This document shows positions 1-25,275 of a stretch of DNA of 30,848 bases, one piece after another. The position numbers and the translations under genes were made by a program. The stretch is taken from IMG/VR virus record IMGVR_UViG_3300045988_027937, positions 1 through 30,848 of that record; one strand, given 5' to 3'. The notes below the pieces were generated by a model that made no database searches, was not told where the DNA came from, and saw only the letters and a program-made list of their open reading frames with translations. How positions within the stretch are numbered: the stretch's first letter is position 1; each line of letters begins with the position of its first letter. The DNA comes from a virus.

Positions 1-99
1 GCCGGAAGTCGATTTGAGCGATTTTTGCTTTCAATTTGATTTTTTGCATAAATGTGATGATAATTTTATATCCGACGAAATTGCCCACCCAAAAAAAAC
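1..99. repeat. 99-bp terminal direct repeat, copy 1 (identical to 30750..30848); either a circular-closure overlap or terminal redundancy
   Basis: Read by eye: bases 1-99 and 30750-30848 are the same string (gccggaagtcgatttgagcg...ttgcccacccaaaaaaaac). An ORF runs in frame through the join. Confidence 0.95.
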
Positions 100-937
100 T
101 CTTGTCGATAAGTTTGTCGTTCCTCCGTTTTCTGTGTTCGATACAAGGCAAGGGTATTGGCAAGATAGAAAAAGAGCGTGGAAAAGTAAATGCGATTTCA
201 CTGAATTTGACGCACGAAACGGTACCTCTTATTTTGATCCGGTTGTTTGTGAATTGATGTATCGCTGGTTTAACGTAAAAGGTGGAAGCATTCTTGACCC
301 GTTTTCTGGCGGGTCTGTTCGAGGAGCAGTTGCGTGCATTCTTGGATATGAATATTACGGATTCGATTTGCGCCGTGAACAAATTGACGCAAATATGGCC
401 GTCGCTGCAAAGAATAAAATTCATCCGGAATATTATTGCGACGACAGCGCCAATATCGATGAATACATCGAAGATTGCAGTGTTGATTTTGTCTTTAGTT
501 GCCCACCGTATGTAGATTTTGAAGTTTACAGCGACGACCCAAGAGATTTATCAAATATGAATTATGACGATTTTTTGCACGCGTATGCAGAAATAATACA
601 AAAATGTTGCAGAAAATTGAAAAATAATAGATTTGCGGCGTTTGTTGTTGGTGAAGTGAGAGACAAAAAAGGTTTTTATCGTGACTTTGTAGATAAAACC
701 AAAAAGGCGTTTTCGGACTCCGGATTGCATTTTTATAACGACATTGTCATTGTAAACGCGATTGGGACAGGAGCAGCTCGGGCTTCTCGTCAATTTAATG
801 CGAAAAGAAAAGTTGTTAATCTTCATCAAAAAATATTAGTGTTTTATAAAGGCGACGAAAAACAAATTCACGGCGTTTTCGGTGATGTCGATTTACCAAA
901 CGAAAGTGAAATTTTAAGTACAACTGAAATGGAGTGA
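2..937 (+). CDS. DNA N6-adenine/N4-cytosine-type methyltransferase domain; 3' part of the ParB-MTase fusion
   Basis: AdoMet-binding motif I DPFSGGSVRG is followed about 65 aa later by a motif-IV-like FSCPPY. The peptide LPEVDLSDFCFQFDF is encoded at both window ends. The track ORF 14..937 only begins at an internal TTG. Confidence 0.85.
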   Translation, partial: PEVDLSDFCFQFDFLHKCDDNFISDEIAHPKKTLVDKFVVPPFSVFDTRQGYWQDRKRAWKSKCDFTEFDARNGTSYFDPVVCELMYRWFNVKGGSILDPFSGGSVRGAVACILGYEYYGFDLRREQIDANMAVAAKNKIHPEYYCDDSANIDEYIEDCSVDFVFSCPPYVDFEVYSDDPRDLSNMNYDDFLHAYAEIIQKCCRKLKNNRFAAFVVGEVRDKKGFYRDFVDKTKKAFSDSGLHFYNDIVIVNAIGTGAARASRQFNAKRKVVNLHQKILVFYKGDEKQIHGVFGDVDLPNESEILSTTEME

Positions 938-2562: not shown

Positions 2563-4134
2563 GTGGTTACAATTTCTACTTATTTGACTTTCCAAGACCT
2601 TGAAGCGTGCGGGGCATTTGAGGGCAAACGGCAGGCGTTTGTCCTTTCCGCTATCCGCCAGCACAAGGCAGGGCAGCTTTACCGGACTGCTTGCCGGGCG
2701 TGGGAGTATTATCGCGGGTTAAATCCGACGATAATGCACTATGAAAAGTTAATCTATGACTTGCGTGGCGACGCTCATATTGACAGATGGGCACCGAACC
2801 ACAAGATCACAAGCAATTTTTTCAATTTTGCGATCACGCAAGAAAATCAGTATTTGCTCGGTAACGGTGCCATTTTTGGCGATAAAAAGACAAAGGAAAA
2901 GCTGGGCGGCGGACAAGGTGAACTGCACGGCGGTTCTTATGACTTTGACTACCAACTGCAGAATATCGGCAAGTCTGCTTTGATTGGCGGCGTGGCTTTT
3001 GGCTTTTGGAACCTTGACCATCTTGATGTGTTCGATGTGACAGAGTTCGTCCCTTTGTTTGATGAGGAAAGCGGAGCGCTGCGTGCTGGCATTCGCTTTT
3101 GGCAGCTTGCAGACGACAAGCCGCTGCGGGCAACTCTTTATGAAGTGGACGGCTACACGGAGTACCTAAGCCCGACTGGCACCAATGAAAAAATCTTGAT
3201 TATTCAGCCAAAGACCGCCTACAAGATGAAGGTGCGGCACTCTATCGCTGACGGAACCGAAATTTACGACTTCGAGAATTACCCGGAATTCCCGATTGTT
3301 CCGCTGTATGGCAACGACAAGAAGCAGTCGGAGTTGGTTGGTCGGCAGGGTACGCTCGACGCATTTGACCTTATCAACAGCAACCTCGTGAACAACGTTG
3401 ACGAGGGCAACATGATCTACTGGGCGATCACCAACGCTGGCGGAATGGACGATGAGGACGACCAGCGGTTCTTGGAGCGGTTGCGGACAATGCATGTTGC
3501 TCATATTGACGATGACGGCGCGCAGGTTGAAGCCCACACAGTTGAAGCACCGATAAGCGCGTCCGACGCTGCGATTGATACAATCAAGGCGCGGCTGTAC
3601 GAGGACTTCATGTGCTTGAACGTTCTCGACCTTTCGGCAAACTCAAAAACTGCCACGGAAATCCGGGCGGCATATCAGCCGCTTGACAGCAAGACGGATA
3701 TGTTCGAGTATTGCGTTACGAATTTTGTGGAAAAGATTTTGCAGATTGCAGAAATCACCGACAGCGTCAGCTTCAAGCGGTCAAAGATTGTAAATCAATC
3801 CGAGGAAATGCAGATGGTTCTTTCCGCTGCCGAGTATTTGGACGACGAAACAATTACAGAGCAAGTCTGCTTCTTGCTTGGTATTGGCGACCAGGCGGAT
3901 GAGATCATCAAGAGAAAGAGAGACGAAGAGGGCAGCCGGGTCGAGATTGACGACGCACCAGCCCTTGATGGAGCAGAACCGGCAGGGAAGCAGTCAGAGC
4001 AGGATGTTGGCCAGCAAGGTAATGAGCCGACCGGAAGCGGGCAGGCTGACGACTTGGACGCCTTGACGGATGAGGAATTGCAGGCGCTGCTTGAAAAGAT
4101 CACCGAGAAGATGAAAAAGAAAGGCGGAAAATAA
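2563..4134 (+). CDS. Portal protein (SPP1 gp6-like)
   Basis: 523 aa, immediately after terL, with an acidic C-terminal tail. GTG start after AAAGGG. Confidence 0.85.
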   Translation: MVTISTYLTFQDLEACGAFEGKRQAFVLSAIRQHKAGQLYRTACRAWEYYRGLNPTIMHYEKLIYDLRGDAHIDRWAPNHKITSNFFNFAITQENQYLLGNGAIFGDKKTKEKLGGGQGELHGGSYDFDYQLQNIGKSALIGGVAFGFWNLDHLDVFDVTEFVPLFDEESGALRAGIRFWQLADDKPLRATLYEVDGYTEYLSPTGTNEKILIIQPKTAYKMKVRHSIADGTEIYDFENYPEFPIVPLYGNDKKQSELVGRQGTLDAFDLINSNLVNNVDEGNMIYWAITNAGGMDDEDDQRFLERLRTMHVAHIDDDGAQVEAHTVEAPISASDAAIDTIKARLYEDFMCLNVLDLSANSKTATEIRAAYQPLDSKTDMFEYCVTNFVEKILQIAEITDSVSFKRSKIVNQSEEMQMVLSAAEYLDDETITEQVCFLLGIGDQADEIIKRKRDEEGSRVEIDDAPALDGAEPAGKQSEQDVGQQGNEPTGSGQADDLDALTDEELQALLEKITEKMKKKGGK

Positions 4135-6326: not shown

Positions 6327-7184
6327 ATGGCTATTTCTTCTTTTATCCCGCAAATTTGGGACGCACGACTGCTGAATGCGCTGGATAAATCGCATGTCTT
6401 CGCTAATGTGGTCAATCGTGACTACGAGGGCGAAATCAAGCAGCAGGGTGATACCGTTAAAATCAACACTATTGGTGCTGTAACCATCGGCGACTACACC
6501 AAGAACACCGATTTTACCAGCGGCCCGGAAGCGCTGGCTACCACCGCACAGAGCCTGACCATCGACCAGGCTAAATACTTCAACTTCCAAGTTGACGATG
6601 TGGACGCTGCCCAGGCTGCCGGTGATGTGATGGACAAGGCAATGGAGCGCGCAGCTTATGGCTTGAACGACGCCGCTGACGCTTACCTGGCTAAACAGTT
6701 GGCCGATTCTATCACCGCTGGCAACGGCAACCTTGTTGCTACCGACGCTGTGGCGCTGACCGCTGCAAATGTGTACGAGAACGTCGTCAAAATGAAGCTG
6801 CTGCTTGACAAGGCGAATGTGCCCACTGTCGGCCGTTGGCTGGTAGCACCTCCCGAGATGATCGCTCTCATCTTGCAGGACGACCGCTTCGTTAAGACCG
6901 GCGGTTCTATGGCCGAGGATGTGCTACAGAACGGCGTTGTCGCTCGTGCTGCTGGTTTTGACATTTATATGTCAAACAACTGTTTCAGCAAGACCGCAAC
7001 CGGCACCACGACCTTTACTGTCACCGCTGGCGACGAGGGTGCGTGCACCTATGCCGAGCAGATTGTGAGCACCGAGGCTTATCGCCCCGAGAAGCGCTTT
7101 GCTGACGCCGTGAAGGGTCTGCATGTGTATGGCGCAAAAGTTGTTGACGCTAAGCGTCTGGCCGGTTTGAAGTGCACATTCTAA
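6327..7184 (+). CDS. Major capsid protein
   Basis: 285 aa following the scaffold. The N-terminus MAISSFIPQIWDARLLNALDKSHVFANVVNRDYEGEIKQQGDTVKIN is typical of this capsid family. RBS AAAGGAG. Confidence 0.8.
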   Translation: MAISSFIPQIWDARLLNALDKSHVFANVVNRDYEGEIKQQGDTVKINTIGAVTIGDYTKNTDFTSGPEALATTAQSLTIDQAKYFNFQVDDVDAAQAAGDVMDKAMERAAYGLNDAADAYLAKQLADSITAGNGNLVATDAVALTAANVYENVVKMKLLLDKANVPTVGRWLVAPPEMIALILQDDRFVKTGGSMAEDVLQNGVVARAAGFDIYMSNNCFSKTATGTTTFTVTAGDEGACTYAEQIVSTEAYRPEKRFADAVKGLHVYGAKVVDAKRLAGLKCTF

Positions 7185-7226: not shown

Positions 7227-7658
7227 GTGACTATGCTGACAGAAATTTGTGCAAAGTTGCACAACTACTTCTTGGTTCCGAATGGAATTCACAAGGGGGA
7301 GTTCAAAATTGAAGGCGGCAAAATCACGCCGCTGGACTTTTTGCAGGAAGGTCAATACTTCCGCATCGTGGGGAGCGTCTTTAATGATGGCGTTCATAGG
7401 TATGCCGAGGCTGACTCGGATTTGACCGACGAGGCTTTCAGCGGGGCGATATGGGCACTGGCGATACCTCCTAAACTGGTGGACTTATCAAGGGAAATCA
7501 AGGCGTTTTGCGAGAGCGAGGCGGGCAAGCCCGGCGCATTTGTGAGCGAAAGTTTCGGCGGATATTCTTATAACCGAGGAACGGACACAAACGGTGCTGC
7601 GCTTGACTGGCCTGCTGTCTTTCGTTCACGCTTAAACGAATGGAGGAAACTGCAATGA
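7227..7658 (+). CDS. Head-tail connector/neck protein (putative)
   Basis: 143 aa. Named from its position after the capsid gene, with translational coupling to the next gene. Confidence 0.45.
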   Translation: MTMLTEICAKLHNYFLVPNGIHKGEFKIEGGKITPLDFLQEGQYFRIVGSVFNDGVHRYAEADSDLTDEAFSGAIWALAIPPKLVDLSREIKAFCESEAGKPGAFVSESFGGYSYNRGTDTNGAALDWPAVFRSRLNEWRKLQ

Positions 7659-8011
7659 GCCTTTTGGCACAAGCAATGACAGAGTGCGTCTTTGTACGGA
7701 AAATCGACAAGCCGGACGGCGAGGGCGGATATACCACCAGCTGGGTGGATGGTGCACCGTTTAAGGCGGCAATCACTTTTGACAGTTCGATGGAAGCACG
7801 CACGGCGGAAAAAGCAGGAGTTACAAGTCTGTACACCGTTACCGTTCCAATCGGCACACGGATTGAATATTACGATGTGTTCAAGCGGCTGTCGGACGGC
7901 AAAGTGTTCCGTGTGACTTCCGACGGCGACGACAAGATGACGCCAAAATCCGCCAGCTTCCAAGTGTTCCAAGTGACGGCTGAGGAGTTCACGCCCAGCG
8001 TTGGCGGGTAA
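7640..8011 (+). CDS. Head-closure / head-tail adaptor protein (SPP1 gp16-like, putative)
   Basis: 123 aa. Named from its position and the GGYTTSWVDGAPFKAAI segment typical of head-closure proteins. Confidence 0.5.
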   Translation: MEETAMSLLAQAMTECVFVRKIDKPDGEGGYTTSWVDGAPFKAAITFDSSMEARTAEKAGVTSLYTVTVPIGTRIEYYDVFKRLSDGKVFRVTSDGDDKMTPKSASFQVFQVTAEEFTPSVGG

Positions 8012-17206: not shown

Positions 17207-17470
17207 ATGAAAGTAAACAAAGAAACAATCGCAAGAACGGTGGTGCTGTTCGTGGCGCTGCTTAACACCGTGCTGAATGCCTGCGGCAAGAACCCGCTAC
17301 CGTTCAGCGACGACGAGGTCTACACCGGAGTGTCTGCCGTGGTGGCAACCGTTGCCGCTGTGTGGGCTTGGTGGAAGAACAACAGTTTTACGGCTGCGGC
17401 TGTCAAAGCAGACGAGGTTTTGAAGATTGAAAAGGCCGAGGGCGGCACCGAAGACGAGGGGGAGCAGTGA
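17207..17470 (+). CDS. Holin (Phage_holin_1 / phi LC3 family)
   Basis: 87 aa with two TM segments. GKNPLPFSDDEVY...AVWAWWKNNSFTAAA is the family signature. It overlaps the endolysin start. Confidence 0.85.
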   Translation: MKVNKETIARTVVLFVALLNTVLNACGKNPLPFSDDEVYTGVSAVVATVAAVWAWWKNNSFTAAAVKADEVLKIEKAEGGTEDEGEQ

Positions 17471-18396
17471 TGGGCACACTTCTTTATTATTGCCGGCAGA
17501 CAACCGAGGCCTGCAAGGGCATTCGGTACGCCAGCAAGAGTCATCCGTATAAGTACGGCACTTCCGGATGTATTTACACCAGCGGCTGTGGGGTGTGCGC
17601 CAGCTTGATGGTTCTGCGAAACTTTGGCGTTGTGCCCGCTACGATGAACACAAAGAAATGGGCGGCCGAGTGTGTCAAGATGGGCGCAAGAGCGGCAGAG
17701 GGTACGAATATGGCCAAAATTGCCGAACACTTCAAAAAGTTTTACGGCATTACCGCCAAGCAGACAAAGAGCACCGAAACGCTGAAAAAGCATTTGAGGA
17801 ACGGTGGGCGCGCCATTATCTGTGTCACCGGCGGCGGTAAGCGGCTGTTCAGCAACAGCGGACATTATATCTATGTTGGCGGCATTGACAAGTCCGGCAA
17901 TTTGATCGTTCTCGACCCGTATTGGTACGACGGGAAATTCACCTTGACGGCACGTAGAAAGGCTTATACAAAGGTCAAGAACGATCGAGAAGTCTATGTG
18001 CAGCCGTCAGCGCTGGCGGCAGACATTGGAAGCATTTGGCTGTTCACAGCACCGAAAGGCGTTAAACCGCTGTGCAGCGTAAACGATGTAAACCACAAGA
18101 AGCCGAAGCCGGTGGCTCCGGTGGTTCACCTTGGCCAGCACATTTTGACCGCCGTTCGTGGAGTTTACAAAGGTTGCGGCGCAGATACCGGGCGCAAAAA
18201 GGTCAGCGACTTGTCAGAGGACGGACAGAAGCACGCTACAACAGCCAAGAGGTCCGCATTTGCGTTTTTGAAAAAAGGGACGATAGTTTCCTTGCTTGAA
18301 GTCAAAAAGGCGAAATCGGGCAACCTGTGGGCTAAAATACCCAGCGGTTGGATTTGCATTTGGGAAAAATCTGACAACACCCTGTTCGTTAAGTAA
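17467..18396 (+). CDS. Endolysin: cysteine-peptidase-type catalytic domain plus C-terminal SH3-like binding domain
   Basis: 309 aa. The SGCGVCASLMVL (Cys) and SGHYIYVGGID (His) pattern points to a cysteine peptidase. The C-terminal GTIVSLLEVKKAKSGNLWAKIPSGWICIW segment is SH3b-like. It follows the holin. Confidence 0.7.
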   Translation: MMGTLLYYCRQTTEACKGIRYASKSHPYKYGTSGCIYTSGCGVCASLMVLRNFGVVPATMNTKKWAAECVKMGARAAEGTNMAKIAEHFKKFYGITAKQTKSTETLKKHLRNGGRAIICVTGGGKRLFSNSGHYIYVGGIDKSGNLIVLDPYWYDGKFTLTARRKAYTKVKNDREVYVQPSALAADIGSIWLFTAPKGVKPLCSVNDVNHKKPKPVAPVVHLGQHILTAVRGVYKGCGADTGRKKVSDLSEDGQKHATTAKRSAFAFLKKGTIVSLLEVKKAKSGNLWAKIPSGWICIWEKSDNTLFVK

Positions 18397-18666: not shown

Positions 18667-18951
18667 ATGGACAACAACAAACAGTGCGACGGCTGCCAAG
18701 GAGCGGCAAATGTGCCTTACGCAGCATTCGAGGCAGTGTCTGCCAGGGCGGAGCGGAACATTCGGCGGCTGGCTTTGATTATCGTTTTTTTGATCCTTGC
18801 GCTAATCGGTTCAAACATTGCTTGGCTGTGCTATGAGAGCCAGTTTGACGATGTCACAAATCAAACAGAGCAAACGGTAACGCAAGACACGGCAGGCGGT
18901 GGCGATAACAATTTCGTAGGCGGTGATTTGGTTGGCACGACAGACGATTAA
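18667..18951 (+). CDS. Single-pass membrane protein (lysis-region accessory)
   Basis: 94 aa with a central TM segment (LALIIVFLILALIGSNIAWLCY). RBS AAGGGAGGA. Confidence 0.5.
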   Translation: MDNNKQCDGCQGAANVPYAAFEAVSARAERNIRRLALIIVFLILALIGSNIAWLCYESQFDDVTNQTEQTVTQDTAGGGDNNFVGGDLVGTTDD

Positions 18952-19055: not shown

Positions 19056-19277
19056 GTGGAGCAGATGAGGGCTGACGATGTGGCAGATCCGTCAAGAGAA
19101 CAGTGGGAGCACTTGATAGAGCAGTACATTTTCAACGAGCAGCACCGCCGGATATTCAAGCGCAGGTGGCTTGACGGCGTTTGTTTTGAACCGCTGGCGG
19201 AGGAGTTTGACATTTCTGTCCGGCACGCACAGAACATCGTCTACAAGTGCGAAAAGAAAATTTTGCGCCACATTTGA
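19056..19277 (+). CDS. Sigma-70 region-4-like HTH transcription regulator (candidate late-gene activator)
   Basis: 73 aa. RRIFKRRWLDGVCFEPLAEEFDISVRHAQNIVYKCEKKILRHI fits the region 4.2 pattern (R..f......G.s..eiAe...is...v.....ra..kl). Confidence 0.6.
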   Translation: MEQMRADDVADPSREQWEHLIEQYIFNEQHRRIFKRRWLDGVCFEPLAEEFDISVRHAQNIVYKCEKKILRHI

Positions 19278-20691: not shown

Positions 20692-21015
20692 ATGGACATT
20701 CACCAGACAATCTACTGGCACCTTGGCGGCTATTCGACAAAGCTGTTCGGCAAAAACAAGCGTGTGCTGCCGGAGTACAGCCGTTATATGGCGGTGCTGC
20801 TGCAACACTTGTTAGACGGAGAGCGGCATTTCTACATTTGCCGCCGACACGGAGAGAGCCGAACAGAGTTGGCATTTTTGAACGCCTTACATATCAAGGG
20901 CGCGTCGGAATTTACTCCGGACAAGATTTGGCTAAAGCTGGACGGCAGACGGAAAGAAGTCAAGCGGCTGATTGAACTTGCCGAGCACTTGGAAAGAGAG
21001 GCGACAAAGCAATGA
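20692..21015 (+). CDS. Hypothetical early protein (107 aa)
   Basis: GGAGGG lies 8 nt upstream of the ATG. Confidence 0.6.
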   Translation: MDIHQTIYWHLGGYSTKLFGKNKRVLPEYSRYMAVLLQHLLDGERHFYICRRHGESRTELAFLNALHIKGASEFTPDKIWLKLDGRRKEVKRLIELAEHLEREATKQ

Positions 21016-21314
21016 GAAATGCAATATCTGCCGTGCTGCGGTGGCTTGGTTGTGCGGTGGCCTGCGTGGGCTTCTGCTTGGTTTCAGAGCGGTTTTGGTG
21101 GTTGCCTATACCGTTTATAGTCTTTGGCAGTTTAACCGTCTTAGCGGGCGTTATGCTTGCCGTAGACGATTGGGAGGACGATGGGCACAAAAAAGACGAC
21201 CAGCAGCAGCCAGTCGCCCGAATTACAGACTTTCAGCAGACCTATTTACTTGCTTGCTCACTTGGCAAGGATGAGGACGGCTCCAGTGCGTCCAACCGGA
21301 GCATTGCGGAGTGA
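21012..21314 (+). CDS. Small membrane protein (two TM segments)
   Basis: ATGA coupling to the previous gene. Its 3' end overlaps the convergent minus-strand ORF by 73 nt. Confidence 0.5.
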   Translation: MRNAISAVLRWLGCAVACVGFCLVSERFWWLPIPFIVFGSLTVLAGVMLAVDDWEDDGHKKDDQQQPVARITDFQQTYLLACSLGKDEDGSSASNRSIAE

Positions 21315-21577
21315 TAGAGCGCTGGAGCGATCACCTGGAGCGTGTCCATTAGCTCGTCCATAAGGTCGAGAACCTGGCAGGTGTCCAATCCGTCAGCGGC
21401 AGCCAAGAAGTCGCTGGAGCCGTCAGTGCTCACAGGCTTGGTGGACTTGCTTGCACCGCCAGTAAGGTGGTCACGGACGATATATAGCCAGGCAAGGCGC
21501 TCAACCGTTGCCCAGGTCGTGTCGTGGTTGCGTTCCAGGTCGAGTATATCTTGATTGAGTATATCCAAAGAAATCAT
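21242..21577 (-). CDS. Hypothetical protein (111 aa)
   Basis: ATG at 21577, preceded on the minus strand by GAAAGGAAAAAG. The track's 21616 start lacks an RBS. Confidence 0.5.
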   Translation of the reverse strand: MISLDILNQDILDLERNHDTTWATVERLAWLYIVRDHLTGGASKSTKPVSTDGSSDFLAAADGLDTCQVLDLMDELMDTLQVIAPALYHSAMLRLDALEPSSSLPSEQASK

Positions 21578-21608
21578 AGCTTTTTCCTTTCGTATTGGGG
21601 GTGATAAA

Positions 21609-21743
21609 ATGAACAAAGAGGTTGTTTTCGTTTACACTTTCGCAGACGGGTATCGCTGCTGGTGTGCTGGGTTCGATAAAGTCGAATCGCAACACGCAGA
21701 AGCAAAGCACGGAAAGCTGGTCAATGTGCAGCGGGAATATTAA
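21609..21743 (+). CDS. Small hypothetical protein (44 aa)
   Basis: It encodes MNKEVVFVYTFADGYRCWCAGFDKVESQHAEAKHGKLVNVQREY. A GGGGGTGA RBS-like sequence lies upstream, and a terminator follows. Confidence 0.4.
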   Translation: MNKEVVFVYTFADGYRCWCAGFDKVESQHAEAKHGKLVNVQREY

Positions 21744-21749
21744 GAAACA

Positions 21750-21780
21750 GGGCAGAGCGAAAGGCTCCGCCCTTTTTTTT
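21750..21780 (+). terminator. Intrinsic terminator (probably bidirectional) between the convergent genes
   Basis: GGGCAGAGC/GCTCCGCCC stem with one mismatch, followed by T8 (21773-21780). On the minus strand the same hairpin is followed by TGTTTCTT. Confidence 0.65.
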
Positions 21781-22339
21781 AGGCTGTCACAACGCCATAA
21801 TTCAGAGAATATCTTGCGAGCAATCCGTCTTGCTCTGCGCAGATCGCAGCAAGGTCATAATCCAGGCACTCTAAGTTTATGCGCTGTCTTTCGACGCGTT
21901 CCAACTCGCAGTCTACCGACTGAACAAGTTTCTTGACTTCACAAGACGCGGCAACTTCGCCAAGTTCGTGCAAGTCTGCGTATGCCTGTTCGTAAAGCTT
22001 CTTGGTTTCGGTTTCCCAAGAGTGCCAGCGTAGAAATGCGTCGCGAACGGCTTTGCGTTTGGTTCCTGCGTCCACTTGCTGGCGGGTATATCCGCGCCAA
22101 GCGTCTGGAATGATCTCCGGGTCTTTGGCGGTCACTTCCGGCAGCAGATGATTGAAGCGCGAGACGAAATACAGGGCAGTTTTTTGATGTTCAAAAAACT
22201 CGGACATCGCCTGGCATTCTTGCTGTCGCTGATAGCCGCAAAGGTTCAAGAATCCGAAATATTCAGCCAGCTGGCTGTGCAGCATTATTCCCTCGATTTG
22301 GTGGGCATTTATGCGCCCAAAAATTTCACTTGCAGTCAT
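21779..22339 (-). CDS. Ferritin-like four-helix-bundle protein (tentative); last gene of the minus-strand operon
   Basis: 186 aa, all-helical. INAHQIEGIMLHSQLAEYFGFLNLCGY...MSEFFEHQK and RWHSWETETKKLYEQAY resemble ferritin/Dps helices A-C, but the metal-ligand spacing is not canonical. Confidence 0.35.
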   Translation of the reverse strand: MTASEIFGRINAHQIEGIMLHSQLAEYFGFLNLCGYQRQQECQAMSEFFEHQKTALYFVSRFNHLLPEVTAKDPEIIPDAWRGYTRQQVDAGTKRKAVRDAFLRWHSWETETKKLYEQAYADLHELGEVAASCEVKKLVQSVDCELERVERQRINLECLDYDLAAICAEQDGLLARYSLNYGVVTA

Positions 22340-22351
22340 AGGCGGCCGCCT

Positions 22352-22753
22352 TTACAGTTTTTCTACCGTCACGGACAGGTTGTTGACAACGGCAGTAGAA
22401 CCGCCAAGCACAAAGGACAGAATGGAACTGTCACATCCGCAGGCATTGCGGAGAATGGCGCTCACTGTCAGCGTAACGGTTTCGTTTACAGCGGCTGTGG
22501 TGGCGCTTGAAGTTGCGCCGATCACGGAGACGCCGTCCTTTTGGGCTGTCAAAGAAACAGTGCCAGCAGCAGGAGGCGTAACGGTGGCCACGGCGGTCAC
22601 CTTGTAATAGCCGCTTCCGCAAAGCGTGATTGTGTTGCCGTCCTGCCGGATGTTACAGCCAAAGCGGCGTGAGGTCACTCCAACAGGAATAACGCTGCCG
22701 GCCGTGATTGTGGGTTCGGTGGTATTTGTTACATAAATTGCAGATTTTGACAT
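22352..22753 (-). CDS. BclA-C-terminal-domain / C1q-TNF-like jelly-roll protein (stand-alone, no collagen repeats)
   Basis: 133 aa. The pattern AGSVIPVGVTSRRFGCNIRQDGNTITLCGSGYYKVTAVATVTP..GTVSLTAQKDGVSVIGATSSATTAAVNETVTLTVSAIL...LSVTVEKL is typical of this fold. RBS GAAAGGAAAAA. Confidence 0.45.
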   Translation of the reverse strand: MSKSAIYVTNTTEPTITAGSVIPVGVTSRRFGCNIRQDGNTITLCGSGYYKVTAVATVTPPAAGTVSLTAQKDGVSVIGATSSATTAAVNETVTLTVSAILRNACGCDSSILSFVLGGSTAVVNNLSVTVEKL

Positions 22754-22781
22754 TTTAGTTTTTTCCTTTCGTAAAAGATTA

Positions 22782-22807
22782 GCGGGAGCAGCTTTTGCCG
22801 CCCCCGC
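22782..22807 (-). terminator. Strand-specific hairpin (partial terminator/attenuator) inside the minus-strand operon
   Basis: The minus-strand RNA GCGGGGGCGGC-AAAA-GCUGCUCCCGC forms an 11-bp stem with two G-U pairs, then UAAUCUUUU. On the plus-strand RNA the same positions are A-C mismatches. Confidence 0.4.
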
Positions 22808-22840
22808 CGGGTTAAATCCTCGCCGTGGTGGCGTGTGTTG

Positions 22841-23416
22841 TTAAATGTTGCAGCAGCTGTTACAGCCGCAGAACGGAGACGGGCCCGCATTGTACGCGTA
22901 GCTTGTCGGATAGCGCACGACGCCGCAAAAACGGCTGTCCATTTCAAGGCTTGTCACCTTGTCACGCAGCGCCTGGATCTCGTTCGTCTGAATCAGCTGC
23001 CGGGTGGCTTCGCCCTCTGCGTGAATCGCCGTTGTGATGTCGCAAGCGTTCTGATTCATCTGTGCAGACAGGTTGGCCGTCGCAAGCTGGTTCTTGCAGC
23101 AGCAGTCTGCCAGCTGGCCTTGGATTGCTCGACCCTCGGTCAAAATGCTGTTGTTCAGCGCGAAAGTGCTGTCGCAAATGCCGTTGCCGATAGTGTTCAG
23201 CCGGTCGTTCAGCTGGCCGAATTGCTGGCCGAACAGGATCTCCTGCTGGCTGGCAGCGGTTGCGTACTGGCCGAATTCGCCCTGTCGGTTCCAGCCGTTG
23301 CCGTTGAAGCCCCAAAACAGGAAGAGCAGGATCACCCACCAAGCACCGTTGCCGCCAAATGCGCCATTGTCGTCACCTACGGCTGCCCGCAGGTCGGAAA
23401 GTGAATAGTTATCCAT
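22841..23416 (-). CDS. Cys-rich single-pass membrane protein with a Gly-rich/hydrophobic YjcZ-like N-terminus
   Basis: 191 aa. It contains GAFGGNGAWWVILLFLFWGFNGNG, internal degenerate repeats each containing Cys (GICD, DCCCKN, NACDITTAI), and a C-terminal FCGCNSCCNI. RBS GAAAGGAAAA. Confidence 0.55.
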   Translation of the reverse strand: MDNYSLSDLRAAVGDDNGAFGGNGAWWVILLFLFWGFNGNGWNRQGEFGQYATAASQQEILFGQQFGQLNDRLNTIGNGICDSTFALNNSILTEGRAIQGQLADCCCKNQLATANLSAQMNQNACDITTAIHAEGEATRQLIQTNEIQALRDKVTSLEMDSRFCGVVRYPTSYAYNAGPSPFCGCNSCCNI

Positions 23417-23466
23417 TTTTTTGTTTTCCTTTCGTTAGATTTTTATAAAATGGGCTGTGCACCGCC

Positions 23467-23703
23467 TCATTTTAACATTGATTGGATTTGCTCCGCTTGG
23501 GCTTTCAACTGTTGAAATTGCTGTTGACTCATCTGCCCGGTGTTGAGCAAATTCTGTACAATCGCCTGCGGGTCTTTCCCACCAAGGGCTTTGCGGAATT
23601 CAGCAAGCTGCTGCAAGAAATTCCCGCCGTTATTTGCCGGCAGGTTCTGCGGCTGCTGCCCGCTGTTTGGTTTTCGCATTGCGTCCAGAATCGGGTTGCG
23701 CAT
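23467..23703 (-). CDS. Small Q-rich protein (78 aa)
   Basis: Strong SD GGAGGAG lies 7 nt upstream of the ATG at 23703. The start sits 74 nt inside the upstream ORF. Confidence 0.55.
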   Translation of the reverse strand: MRNPILDAMRKPNSGQQPQNLPANNGGNFLQQLAEFRKALGGKDPQAIVQNLLNTGQMSQQQFQQLKAQAEQIQSMLK

Positions 23704-24037
23704 TGATGATCTCCTCCAGTCTTGCTATGCGCTGTTCAAGGTCTGCGTTTGTCGGCTGTTGCGTCTGTTCGTGCGGTGTGATGTTGAATGCCGACACAGT
23801 CTTGTAACCTGCGCCGTCTGTCTTTACAAGCCACACAAGCGGCTGGCTTTCGTCCAGCAGTAATGCGCTGCTGTTCGGTGCCAGCGGGTAGGCCTGCGCT
23901 CCGTTCTCTCCGTTGACAGTGACCACATCACAACGCTGTTGCATTGCTTGATTTTGCTGCATTGCCGCAAGTCTGTCAGCGTATGGATTTCCGTAGGGCT
24001 GCACGCCCTGCATATATCCGTTGAATGTGTTATACAT
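23630..24037 (-). CDS. Hypothetical protein with a Q/N/Y/G-rich N-terminus, beta-rich core and C-terminal coiled coil; first gene of the minus-strand operon
   Basis: 135 aa. RBS GGAGGG lies 8 nt upstream of the ATG at 24037. Confidence 0.6.
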   Translation of the reverse strand: MYNTFNGYMQGVQPYGNPYADRLAAMQQNQAMQQRCDVVTVNGENGAQAYPLAPNSSALLLDESQPLVWLVKTDGAGYKTVSAFNITPHEQTQQPTNADLEQRIARLEEIINAQPDSGRNAKTKQRAAAAEPAGK

Positions 24038-24158
24038 TGACTGTTCCCTCCGTTTCTATCTCTATTTTAGAATTTTACAGTTTGTATTTCCACGAGCATA
24101 TCACGCAAGATTTATACCGATTGTATAAAAGAAATATAAGAAAGATATAAAAAAAGTA

Positions 24159-24187
24159 TTGACTTTTCCGCTTTTTGGGTGTAATAT
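24159..24187 (+). promoter_or_regulatory. Promoter TTGACT-17-TAATAT for the replication/recombination operon
   Basis: TTGACT at 24159-24164 and TAATAT at 24182-24187. The upstream 21 nt are identical to the promoter at 19641. Confidence 0.7.
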
Positions 24188-24234
24188 AGTAAATGTCAAA
24201 GGGAGAGTAACTTCCAGACGAAAGGAGAATATAT

Positions 24235-24864: not shown

Positions 24865-25275
24865 ATGAACAGATGTGCGATTTGTGGCCGTGTCGTTGAC
24901 GGCTGGGAGATCAGCGGCGGCGTGTGTGACAGCTGCGCAGAAGCTATGGACGATGACAAGATGGTTTGCCCGATTTGCGGCAAAGAACATTACAAAGAGG
25001 ATATGCCGCACGGCGTTTGCTCCGACTGCTTGGGCGAGACTGCTTGGAAGTTTGACACAGTCAAGGAGATCGTCGGAGACGAAAAAGAGAGCGTTCAGCT
25101 ATCTGCGTTGGTAGTTTCAATGTTAGACCCGGACGAAATCGAGGAAATCTGCGAGAGAGAAATCCGAAAGGCTGTTGAAGCCGGAGAGGTTGACCTTTCG
25201 CCGGTGATAGAAGCGGACGAGGACTGGTTCTGCGAGCGCTTCATTGAACACGATAGAAAGGAGGGTGAGAGATGA
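24865..25275 (+). CDS. Zinc-ribbon protein (two CxxC...CxxC pairs) with an acidic C-terminal half
   Basis: The Cys pairs are CAICG...CDSC and CPICG...CSDC. RBS GAAAGGAG. Confidence 0.6.
   Translation: MNRCAICGRVVDGWEISGGVCDSCAEAMDDDKMVCPICGKEHYKEDMPHGVCSDCLGETAWKFDTVKEIVGDEKESVQLSALVVSMLDPDEIEEICEREIRKAVEAGEVDLSPVIEADEDWFCERFIEHDRKEGER

Follow-up and report, generated by a model that had tools for sequence, protein, structure and literature searches.

The window analysed in this study is the complete 30,848-nucleotide (nt) stretch of the IMG/VR virus record IMGVR_UViG_3300045988_027937, which encodes an SPP1-like siphovirus, and the subject is a block of minus-strand genes, here called A to F, in a genome that otherwise runs on the plus strand. 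According to the window's list of open reading frames (ORFs), A [135 amino acids (aa), 23630–24037], B (78 aa, 23467–23703), C (191 aa, 22841–23416), D (133 aa, 22352–22753), and E (186 aa, 21779–22339) are all present with the positions and lengths given in an initial annotation made from the sequence alone, which had read them as a self-contained operon, possibly a spore-surface or envelope cassette. The remainder of the window consists of SPP1-like genes, which lie on the plus strand as that annotation had it, apart from one additional minus-strand gene, F (111 aa, 21242–21577). Comparison with related loci revealed that these genes form a mobile, separately transcribed accessory module of gut-anaerobe phages, with a fixed gene order and under strong constraint.

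Ratios of nonsynonymous to synonymous substitution rates (dN/dS), computed against 3–19 relatives of approximately 90% identical DNA, were 0.036 for A, 0.078 for B, 0.017 for C, 0.063 for D, 0.081 for E, and 0.027 for F. Because this range (0.02–0.08 for the first five) reflects strong purifying selection, A–E are genuine genes. Two small neighbours discussed below, a 44-aa ORF and a helix-turn-helix (HTH) gene, gave 0.031 and 0.024, respectively, and the holin and lysin genes of the phage gave 0.03.

Leftward transcription of the block appears to start in an AT-rich divergent control region (24038–24234) that also serves the rightward early genes. As initially proposed, this region is low in GC (32% at 24000–24199), and it carries back-to-back sigma-70-like promoter matches, one leading to A (TGGAAA-17-TAAAAT, 24092–24064, with the −10 box 27 nt before the ATG) and one leading rightward (TTGACT-17-TAATAT, 24159–24187), together with a 19-nt direct repeat (24069–24087 and 24108–24126, 79% identity, 39 nt apart). 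The terminator noted at the left side of the block is a good hairpin (21749–21773; 10-bp stem with A8 and T-rich flanks, z = −4.05), though it is bidirectional: leftward it terminates E, and rightward the 44-aa ORF of the plus strand. A further minus-strand terminator follows F (21194–21219; 11-bp stem plus U6, z = −3.16). The view of a self-contained five-gene operon had to be given up, because F belongs to the unit and a conserved terminator splits C from D, so that the unit is not one uniform operon. This minus-strand terminator-like hairpin (22781–22808; 12-bp stem plus U-run, z = −4.19) lies in a 92-nt region (22754–22845) that folds at −32.2 kcal/mol, in which a small CGCC/GGCG hairpin is followed by GGGGCGGC-loop-GCCGCCCC and then by the U-run. 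The hairpin pair is kept across divergent lineages, where the letters of the stems vary and the pairing stays. It is probably an internal attenuator, and the conservation of a hairpin after C suggests that A-B-C and D-E are probably expressed at different levels. No component of the module matched an Rfam family.

Good Shine–Dalgarno (SD) sequences had been claimed for all five genes, which is correct for A (GGAGGG), B (GGAGGAG), C, and D (both CGAAAGGAAAA) and not for E, where the sequence is weak (AAGG). The window contains exactly three copies of the CGAAAGGAAAA element (0.04 expected), and every copy serves as a ribosome-binding site on the minus strand; three genes do share it, as had been noticed, but they are C, D, and F (copy at 21582–21592), the last of which lies outside the five-gene block. 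A and B overlap by 74 nt, and the start codon of E is 12 nt past the stop of D. The 44-aa ORF (MNKEVVFVYTFADGYRCWCAGFDKVESQHAEAKHGKLVNVQREY; 21609–21743, plus strand) between F and E is called in every window-like contig; it has a strong SD sequence (GGGGGTGA), runs from a start codon 32 nt away from that of the divergent F up to the bidirectional terminator, and could have a regulatory role.

A search with C identified 245 relatives in IMG/VR. In a collection of 5.8 billion proteins, which also supplied the counts for A and D, the C family comprises 3,984 clusters and the A family 1,291 clusters at 90% identity, so that the block is by no means peculiar to this phage. Families were called by iterative hidden Markov models (HMMs) in loci with enough flanking DNA (n = 90). 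Of these 90 loci, 80 keep the order A-B-C-D intact and 84 have A, C, and D, confirming that the genes of the block co-occur in other genomes. The position after D varies and is taken by E (often then F), by a DUF7841 protein (PF25223, E-value 8e-23), by F alone, or by nothing.

In temperate relatives, the module lies just 3′ of the lysis genes, co-directional with them, and just 5′ of a convergent integrase or prophage end, while its place in virulent relatives is between lysis genes and early/replication genes. In the virulent Clostridium perfringens phages and in L102 (loci of the comparison carry L numbers), a metagenome-assembled genome (MAG) of Lachnospira, it stands in front of replication/recombination genes. 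No integrase was seen in the 30.8-kb window or in the ±10-kb Pfam-annotated contexts of contigs of ~33–34 kb. One contig of 0.2–1 Mb is listed with the exact C protein and may hold an integrated copy of this phage. The lysis partners vary from Holin_SPP1 with a C39-like endolysin in the window phage to Phage_holin_1 with Peptidase_M23 in prophages inserted beside comEC, an amidase with a SPOR domain in MT835537, and a putative endolysin, recognized by eye, in L102; the structural partners include SPP1-like siphovirus and crAss-like modules. Compared with co-directional relatives (for example, L015–L017), the window phage has the whole A–F block in inverted orientation, and the inverted module now fires divergently from the early promoter region. 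No inverted repeats of note flank the inverted block. Several relatives have lost parts of it: L113 is without D and most of E (window 21925–22732), L114 is without part of E, L029 is without ~122 nt inside C, and A and B were undetected in L087. These genomes are otherwise 86–93% identical to the window at the DNA level. Judging from these losses, parts of the module appear dispensable.

Gene C encodes the hallmark protein of the module. An N-terminal SLSD motif precedes a single hydrophobic segment set between Gly/Asn runs. Conservation is very high in the stretch that comes next (NRQGEFGQYATAASQQEILFGQQFGQLNDRL); the middle of the protein is helical and has an invariant CCC, and the tail, rich in Cys, contains the C-terminal motif GVVRYPxxYxYxAGxSPFCG...C. 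Exactly one hydrophobic segment was identified in every member of the family, and C has 10 Cys, of which six (C81, C105–107, C183, and C189) are invariant; the initial description of a Cys-containing membrane protein is thus well founded. The suggested likeness of its N-terminus to YjcZ is not, since NCBIfam and Pfam searches at E-values up to 1 gave only noise and the resemblance is confined to the composition of the Gly-flanked hydrophobic segment. C falls in phrog_16490 (E-value 8.6e-11), its clusters are named only “hypothetical protein” if at all and have no Pfam domain, and its profile retrieved only noise from the PDB (AhlC, E-value 0.2). A weak match to the Pfam reovirus sigmaC triple beta-spiral (E-value 0.021) was also obtained. 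One K/R residue lies on each side of the hydrophobic segment, and the N-terminal flank is the more acidic. Exported Firmicutes proteins tend to exclude cysteine. This tendency, together with the charge bias and the lack of export signals in A, B, D, E, and F, suggests that C is probably oriented N-out/C-in with its Cys-rich body in the cytoplasm. A lipobox is absent from every protein of the module.

D was described initially as a stand-alone jelly roll of the BclA C-terminal domain (CTD)/C1q type, and the structural searches agree. Its AlphaFold2 model (predicted local distance difference test, pLDDT, 93; predicted template modelling score, pTM, 0.85) superposes on the ten-strand jelly roll of the BclA CTD. 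The best Foldseek match is a BclA CTD [E-value 1.2e-10, template modelling (TM) score 0.77], and matches to 3twi, 3tyj, and 1wck have E-values of 1e-10 to 9e-10, TM scores of 0.76–0.77, and a root-mean-square deviation of ~3 Å; the ranking runs from BclA and F-BclA over BxpB (TM score 0.82) and ExsFA to TNF, C1q, and PRD1 P5. Over the BclA CTD, BxpB/ExsFA of the Bacillus cereus group, and C1q/TNF, the shared jelly roll is matched with E-values of 1e-10 to 1e-8 and TM scores of 0.73–0.82. The sequence similarity is weak and consistent: BclA entries are the top PDB sequence matches with D alone and with the family profile (E-values 2e-4 to 1.6e-3), and D residues 7–129 align over the full length of Pfam BclA_C (PF18573, profile 2–123 of 128) at an E-value of 8e-4 and 19.7 bits, under the gathering cutoff of 38. 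Like BxpB/ExsFA, D is a stand-alone domain of ~130–150 aa. It differs from BclA in sequence (10–23% identity, Pfam score under threshold), in having no collagen-like GXX repeats and no exosporium-targeting N-terminus (the jelly roll begins at residue 5), and in being phage-encoded with relatives in non-sporulating contexts. The top BFVD matches are stand-alone 130–150-aa proteins of uncultured gut phages, followed by C-terminal knobs of collagen-like and tail-fibre proteins, and the family profile matches at least 644 clusters, few of which are named, and then as “hypothetical protein”; a Pfam domain is absent from all of them. We considered D as a decoy of the receptor-binding protein that mimics the phage's own fibre tip and rejected this, as the D HMM detected no D-like domain in other ORFs of 117 loci.

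A has a Q/N/Y-rich N-terminus, a small core of a helix and three strands, and a C-terminal helix, and its conserved core reads VNGxxGAxAYxxxPNSSxLLLDExxPxVWLxxxDGAGY. It belongs to phrog_21718 (E-value 1e-9), and its AlphaFold2 model is moderate (pLDDT 69 overall, 81–89 in the core); neither the profile search of PDB sequences nor Foldseek of the model against the PDB returned anything, and none of its clusters is named or has a Pfam domain. B is helical, with 20% Gln, belongs to phrog_22984 (E-value 1.3e-14), and its relatives keep the N-terminus M-x-NPILQAM. A, B, and C matched no characterised family. E, a helical protein in the variable fifth position with 476 representative clusters, had been called ferritin-like, which is plausible, though the support is weak: ferritins take the first four places among the PDB matches of a 56-sequence profile (E-values 3e-3 to 1e-2, with helices A-B and C-D aligned colinearly), and two of 56 family members reach Pfam Ferritin (PF00210) at an E-value below 0.01, while the single sequence in Pfam and a 5-sequence profile matched nothing. 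A di-iron centre would call for the ligands E, ExxH, E, and ExxH; in the E family, H21 is the one residue without variation, E47, E109, and E145 come close to it, and the His of the canonical helix-B EExxH motif is not conserved in the profile alignment to ferritin. For F, which uses CGAAAGGAAAA as its ribosome-binding site and was found beside the module as 43 ORFs across loci, C. perfringens phages included, and for the 44-aa ORF, no matches were obtained. The 3′ end of F overlaps that of a convergent plus-strand gene (21012–21314, phrog_33952) by 73 nt (21242–21314).

A candidate regulator is encoded at 19056–19277 on the plus strand. This 73-aa HTH protein resembles sigma70 region 4 (Pfam Sigma70_r4, E-value 0.0097, below the cutoff), and its homologue in L001 clears the cutoff of Sigma70_r4_2 (copies at 7787–8059 in L001 and at 6942–7211 in L102). 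Using jackhmmer, we identified homologues of 73–90 aa, comprising little beyond sigma70 region 4, in 72 loci, and in ~33 of 90 loci the gene lies directly 5′ of A on the same strand. It is nearby on the opposite strand in window-like loci; in the window, the inversion and four inserted genes separate it from the module. Direct repeats of 8-mers at ~11-bp spacing are present in 36 of 51 distinct regions 5′ of A compared with 16% of shuffles, and three copies in 11 of 51 compared with 0.4% of shuffles (for example, L031 ~5300, L098 ~7281–7300, and L100 ~3722–3745). Elsewhere in the DNA of the loci compared, no phased repeats were found, and the two-copy pattern, when scanned over viral contigs, was far too unspecific for the question of late promoters. 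In relatives, an upstream terminator often immediately precedes the promoter of the module; inspection by eye showed that the 5′ arm of such a hairpin is often formed by the last repeat and that the T-run of the hairpin passes into a TGnTAnnnT extended −10 box, located 25–35 nt before the start codon. Like HTH proteins pair with like repeats (TGGCG in L031 and L035, TTGGCAG in L092 and L100) and differing proteins with differing repeats, which suggests that each lineage probably has in its HTH protein the activator of a transcription unit that is insulated in other respects. A late-promoter activator that binds upstream repeats is known from lactococcal phage TP901-1 (Alt). The module resembles Alt and GerE in having a small HTH protein by a promoter without an evident −35 box and phased repeats 5′ of an extended −10 box, but its HTH gene follows the lysis genes rather than preceding the terminase, and the likeness considered is one of architecture.

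Versions of the module were identified in the virulent C. perfringens siphophages vB_CpeS-17DYC, HMD-PC1, PMQ04, XP41-N3, CPD1, and CPQ4. Their A′ and C′ fall in the same PHROGs as A and C, B′ and F′ resemble B and F by eye, and 17DYC has a 175-aa homologue of E (hhalign E-value 2e-11), whereas the D position holds a different beta-rich protein. The set lies in the early region, with an anti-repressor gene on one side and Gam/recombinase/ThyX genes on the other. In the crAss-like phage cr53_1 (Suoliviridae), a holin and an LysB/FtsL-like protein are followed by a DUF7841 protein (42% identity to the Clostridial one, E-value 8e-21) and by gp66, a homologue of C (hhalign 97.6%, E-value 5e-12) in which the WWW-rich hydrophobic segment between Gly flanks and the CCC are kept and the tail has CGCGC; on its contig (L118), DUF7841, the C homologue, and two unknown genes come right after the holin and the spanin-like gene. 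The late genes at 3169–6488 of L118 have in-frame stops under table 11, which points to stop-codon recoding. A curator had labelled the cr53_1 protein “spike protein/glycoprotein,” and another C homologue is labelled “outer capsid protein/viral fiber.” By hhalign, no relation to D was found for the gene that follows C in C. perfringens and crAss-like phages, which had been considered a possible divergent D. A C homologue is also encoded amid the recombination genes of a cultured phage of Bacteroides uniformis.

No carrier was found among the Bacillus, Staphylococcus, Streptococcus, Listeria, and Lactococcus phages of a collection of 50,697 records. A scan of 185,579 species genomes yielded 18 loci, all in MAGs or uncultured-isolate bins (Dysosmobacter, Oscillospiraceae, Clostridia, and Lachnospira, several probably mis-binned); several are on phage-sized contigs, those inspected carry the phage module, and none of the 18 is a chromosomal sporulation locus. 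Phage-sized module contigs were also found in MAGs labelled Bacteroidaceae, Paludibacteraceae, or “archaeon” (L087, L095, L099, L100, and L104). These labels are probably binning errors, and host assignment from such bins is therefore unsafe. Our literature search found no paper that mentions DUF7841 and nothing relevant on BclA-like prophage proteins, and a comparative study of C. perfringens phages (PMC3118219) yielded, with the terms used, no discussion of sporulation, sigma factors, or virion structural proteins.

None of A–F belongs to a known virion, lysis, defence, or conversion family in Pfam, NCBIfam, PHROGs, PADLOC, or PDB sequences, which agrees with the initial statement that the five proteins have no standard phage function. 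In PADLOC at E-values up to 0.1, A–F, the HTH protein, and the 44-aa ORF had no match and the DUF7841 protein matched only PbeC (E-value 0.07); the module therefore cannot be assigned to a described defence system, as had also been stated. We found no described system that contains these proteins.

We tentatively propose that the module acts on the infected or lysogenic cell through a membrane-tethered complex, for example in exclusion or envelope modification. C would be tethered in the cytoplasmic membrane by its single N-terminal hydrophobic segment and would recruit the predicted TNF/BxpB-like trimer of D, along with two small proteins, A and B, to form a membrane-bound complex. The lineage-specific HTH protein would switch the module on, and the complex would act on the cell rather than form part of the virion, most likely by excluding competing phages or altering the envelope. 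Such a host-directed role is suggested by the position in an accessory hot spot between lysis and lysogeny/early genes, by terminator insulation together with an own activator-type promoter, by the free combination with unrelated virion and lysis modules, and by the occurrence in both temperate and virulent phages with partial deletions tolerated. Morons and exclusion cassettes such as the prophage toxins of Streptococcus pyogenes and Staphylococcus aureus, lactococcal Sie2009, and T5 Llp occupy the same site between lysis genes and attP/integrase as the module does in temperate relatives, and they share with it an own promoter and terminators, a membrane-anchored product, and apparently dispensable parts. 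The module differs from them in being a fixed set of four to six genes with very strong conservation and a dedicated regulator, in having no sequence relation to described exclusion proteins, and in its distribution, as it is not restricted to temperate phages and is found in integrase-less and virulent ones. If this interpretation is true, the module would represent an unusual multi-component version of a known phage accessory function.

Several considerations weigh against this proposal. The argument for exclusion proceeds from position, autonomy, and membrane anchoring, and no homologue ties A, B, or C to a function. Known exclusion proteins are usually single, fast-evolving genes, and here four to six genes are highly conserved. 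The membrane topology of C is ambiguous because only one K/R flanks the hydrophobic segment on each side. The deletion variants were assembled from metagenomes and may stem from faulty assembly or from defective genomes, and the link between HTH protein and repeats comes from covariation, the binding being predicted. The TNF-like fold of D, typical of fibre tips, and the “spike” and “viral fiber” labels on C homologues would fit a virion fibre, and the adjacency to lysis genes in Clostridia and crAss-like phages would fit a lysis-linked role.

If the proposal is wrong, the module may be a new kind of machine, which we regard as possible but doubtful. The HTH protein and A-B-C-D (with E or DUF7841, and F) would then form an undescribed multi-protein assembly common to gut phages of Bacillota and Bacteroidota, in which a membrane-tethered, Cys-rich coiled-coil scaffold docks a TNF/BxpB-like trimer and proteins with low-complexity, Q/N/Y-rich regions. 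Under control of a lineage-specific sigma-region-4-like activator, this could be a redox-gated exclusion or lysis switch or a phage-induced envelope structure with no described counterpart.

A dispensable fibre or decoration of the virion, in which C provides a trimeric coiled-coil shaft plugged into the particle by its hydrophobic N-terminus, D the knob, and A and B serve as assembly or adaptor proteins, seems rather unlikely. Reovirus sigma1, adenovirus fibre, PRD1 P5, and BclA are the models, and the reading draws on the fold of D, which is that of the knobs of collagen-like and tail-fibre proteins and of PRD1 P5, on the weak sigmaC match of C and the curator labels of its homologues, on the co-directional position of the module behind the late operon in temperate relatives, and on the strong purifying selection. 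Viral fibres with a TNF-like knob (reovirus sigma1/sigmaC, adenovirus, and PRD1 P5) indeed share the hydrophobic N-terminus and long helix seen in C and the knob fold of D, but shaft and knob would be separate polypeptides here, the genes lie outside the structural module, and the N-terminal segment of C with its Gly-run flanks resembles a true transmembrane helix. Unrelated capsid and tail systems, from SPP1-like to crAss-like, would all have to offer a fitting attachment. The own promoter and terminators outside the structural operon, the place among early/recombination genes in virulent C. perfringens and B. uniformis phages, the lack of a D-like domain in the tail-fibre ORFs of the loci, and the existence of natural deletions argue against it as well.

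We consider it unlikely that the module is linked to lysis, either in its timing, as an antiholin or lysis-inhibition sensor, or in a late step such as disruption of outer layers or protection of progeny from debris. Its place directly 3′ of holin and endolysin genes in many Clostridia phages and the gene order of cr53_1, where holin, LysB/FtsL-like protein, DUF7841 protein, and C homologue follow one another, favour such a link. The same holds for p94, a 94-aa protein with a single transmembrane segment encoded after the endolysin (18667–18951, plus strand), which has no family match and whose homologues co-travel with the module in many loci in either orientation. The architecture of C recalls i-spanins such as Rz by general-knowledge analogy and without a match: an N-terminal transmembrane segment and a coiled coil are shared with Rz and with phi29 p16.7, and conserved Cys and proximity to lysis genes with Rz. 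However, C has no sequence similarity to either, no o-spanin partner, and no basic DNA-binding tail of the p16.7 type. A–F match no holin, antiholin, or spanin family in Pfam, PHROGs, or NCBIfam, and the window has its own holin and endolysin. The hosts are mostly monoderm Clostridia that need no spanin, and cr53_1 already has a spanin-like gene; furthermore, more than 10 genes, over ~4 kb, separate the C. perfringens module from the lysis genes, and in the window it lies on the opposite strand beside the early promoter.

It is improbable, in our estimate, that the module is a redox or metal device of phages of strict anaerobes, with the Cys of C binding metal or Fe-S or forming disulfides on exposure to oxygen, E handling iron or oxidants, and C and E together coupling redox state to a phage decision. 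The invariant C81, CCC105–107, C183, and C189, the distant ferritin-likeness of E, and the restriction of carriers to Clostridia and Bacteroides phages, with none from aerobic or facultative Firmicutes in the 50,697-record collection, are consistent with this idea, but E is optional and can be swapped for the unrelated DUF7841 protein, its family does not conserve the helix-B EExxH His, no library recognised a cofactor-binding motif, and exchange of genes inside a single habitat may explain why only phages of anaerobes are carriers.

Bacteroides hosts do not sporulate. The initial idea of a cassette that remodels spore coat or exosporium, for the spore surface or for carriage of phage in spores, is very improbable: although the nearest solved structures of D are all Bacillus spore-surface proteins (BclA, F-BclA, and BxpB/ExsFA), C is Cys-rich like the exosporium proteins ExsY, CotY, and CdeC, one cultured host, C. 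perfringens, sporulates, and the regulator is a small stand-alone HTH of GerE architecture (Pfam GerE only at an E-value of 0.079), the idea is not supported because the scan of 185,579 species genomes yielded no chromosomal homologues outside phage or prophage contexts and because the boxes 5′ of A (TGnTAnnnT extended −10 with phased repeats, by eye) look sigma-A-type rather than sigma-E/K/G-type, to which are added the C and DUF7841 homologues side by side in crAss-like phages, the C homologue in a B. uniformis phage, the lack of a BclA collagen-like region in D, and the absence of any match to a Pfam or NCBIfam sporulation family.

With ~4,000 clusters of the C family in public metagenomes, a constraint as strong as that on holin and endolysin, and a range that spans phages of Gram-positive Clostridia and Gram-negative Bacteroides, this conserved multi-gene unit with its own regulator is common in human-gut phages and likely affects phage–host or phage–phage dynamics. 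It also indicates that TNF-like domains of the BclA/BxpB type recur as stand-alone phage proteins, beyond spores and fibre tips. The module alone does not resolve a long-standing question; the lytic C. perfringens carriers in culture bring it within reach of experiment.

The other genes of the window make up an SPP1-like siphovirus genome. A ParB/methylase region, TerL, an SPP1-type portal, a Mu-F-like protein, the capsid, the tape measure, and a Big_2 tail protein are encoded from the left end, where the N6/N4 DNA methylase gene (14–937, plus strand) adjoins the ParB_N gene seen in relatives. The lysis genes are an SPP1-type holin (17207–17470, plus strand) and a Peptidase_C39_2-like endolysin (17467–18396, plus strand), and they are followed by early/replication genes encoding NikA-like, ERCC4, dUTPase, DnaG zinc ribbon, VapE, and ParB_N proteins. 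A double-zinc-ribbon protein (24865–25275, plus strand) is encoded among the first rightward early genes.

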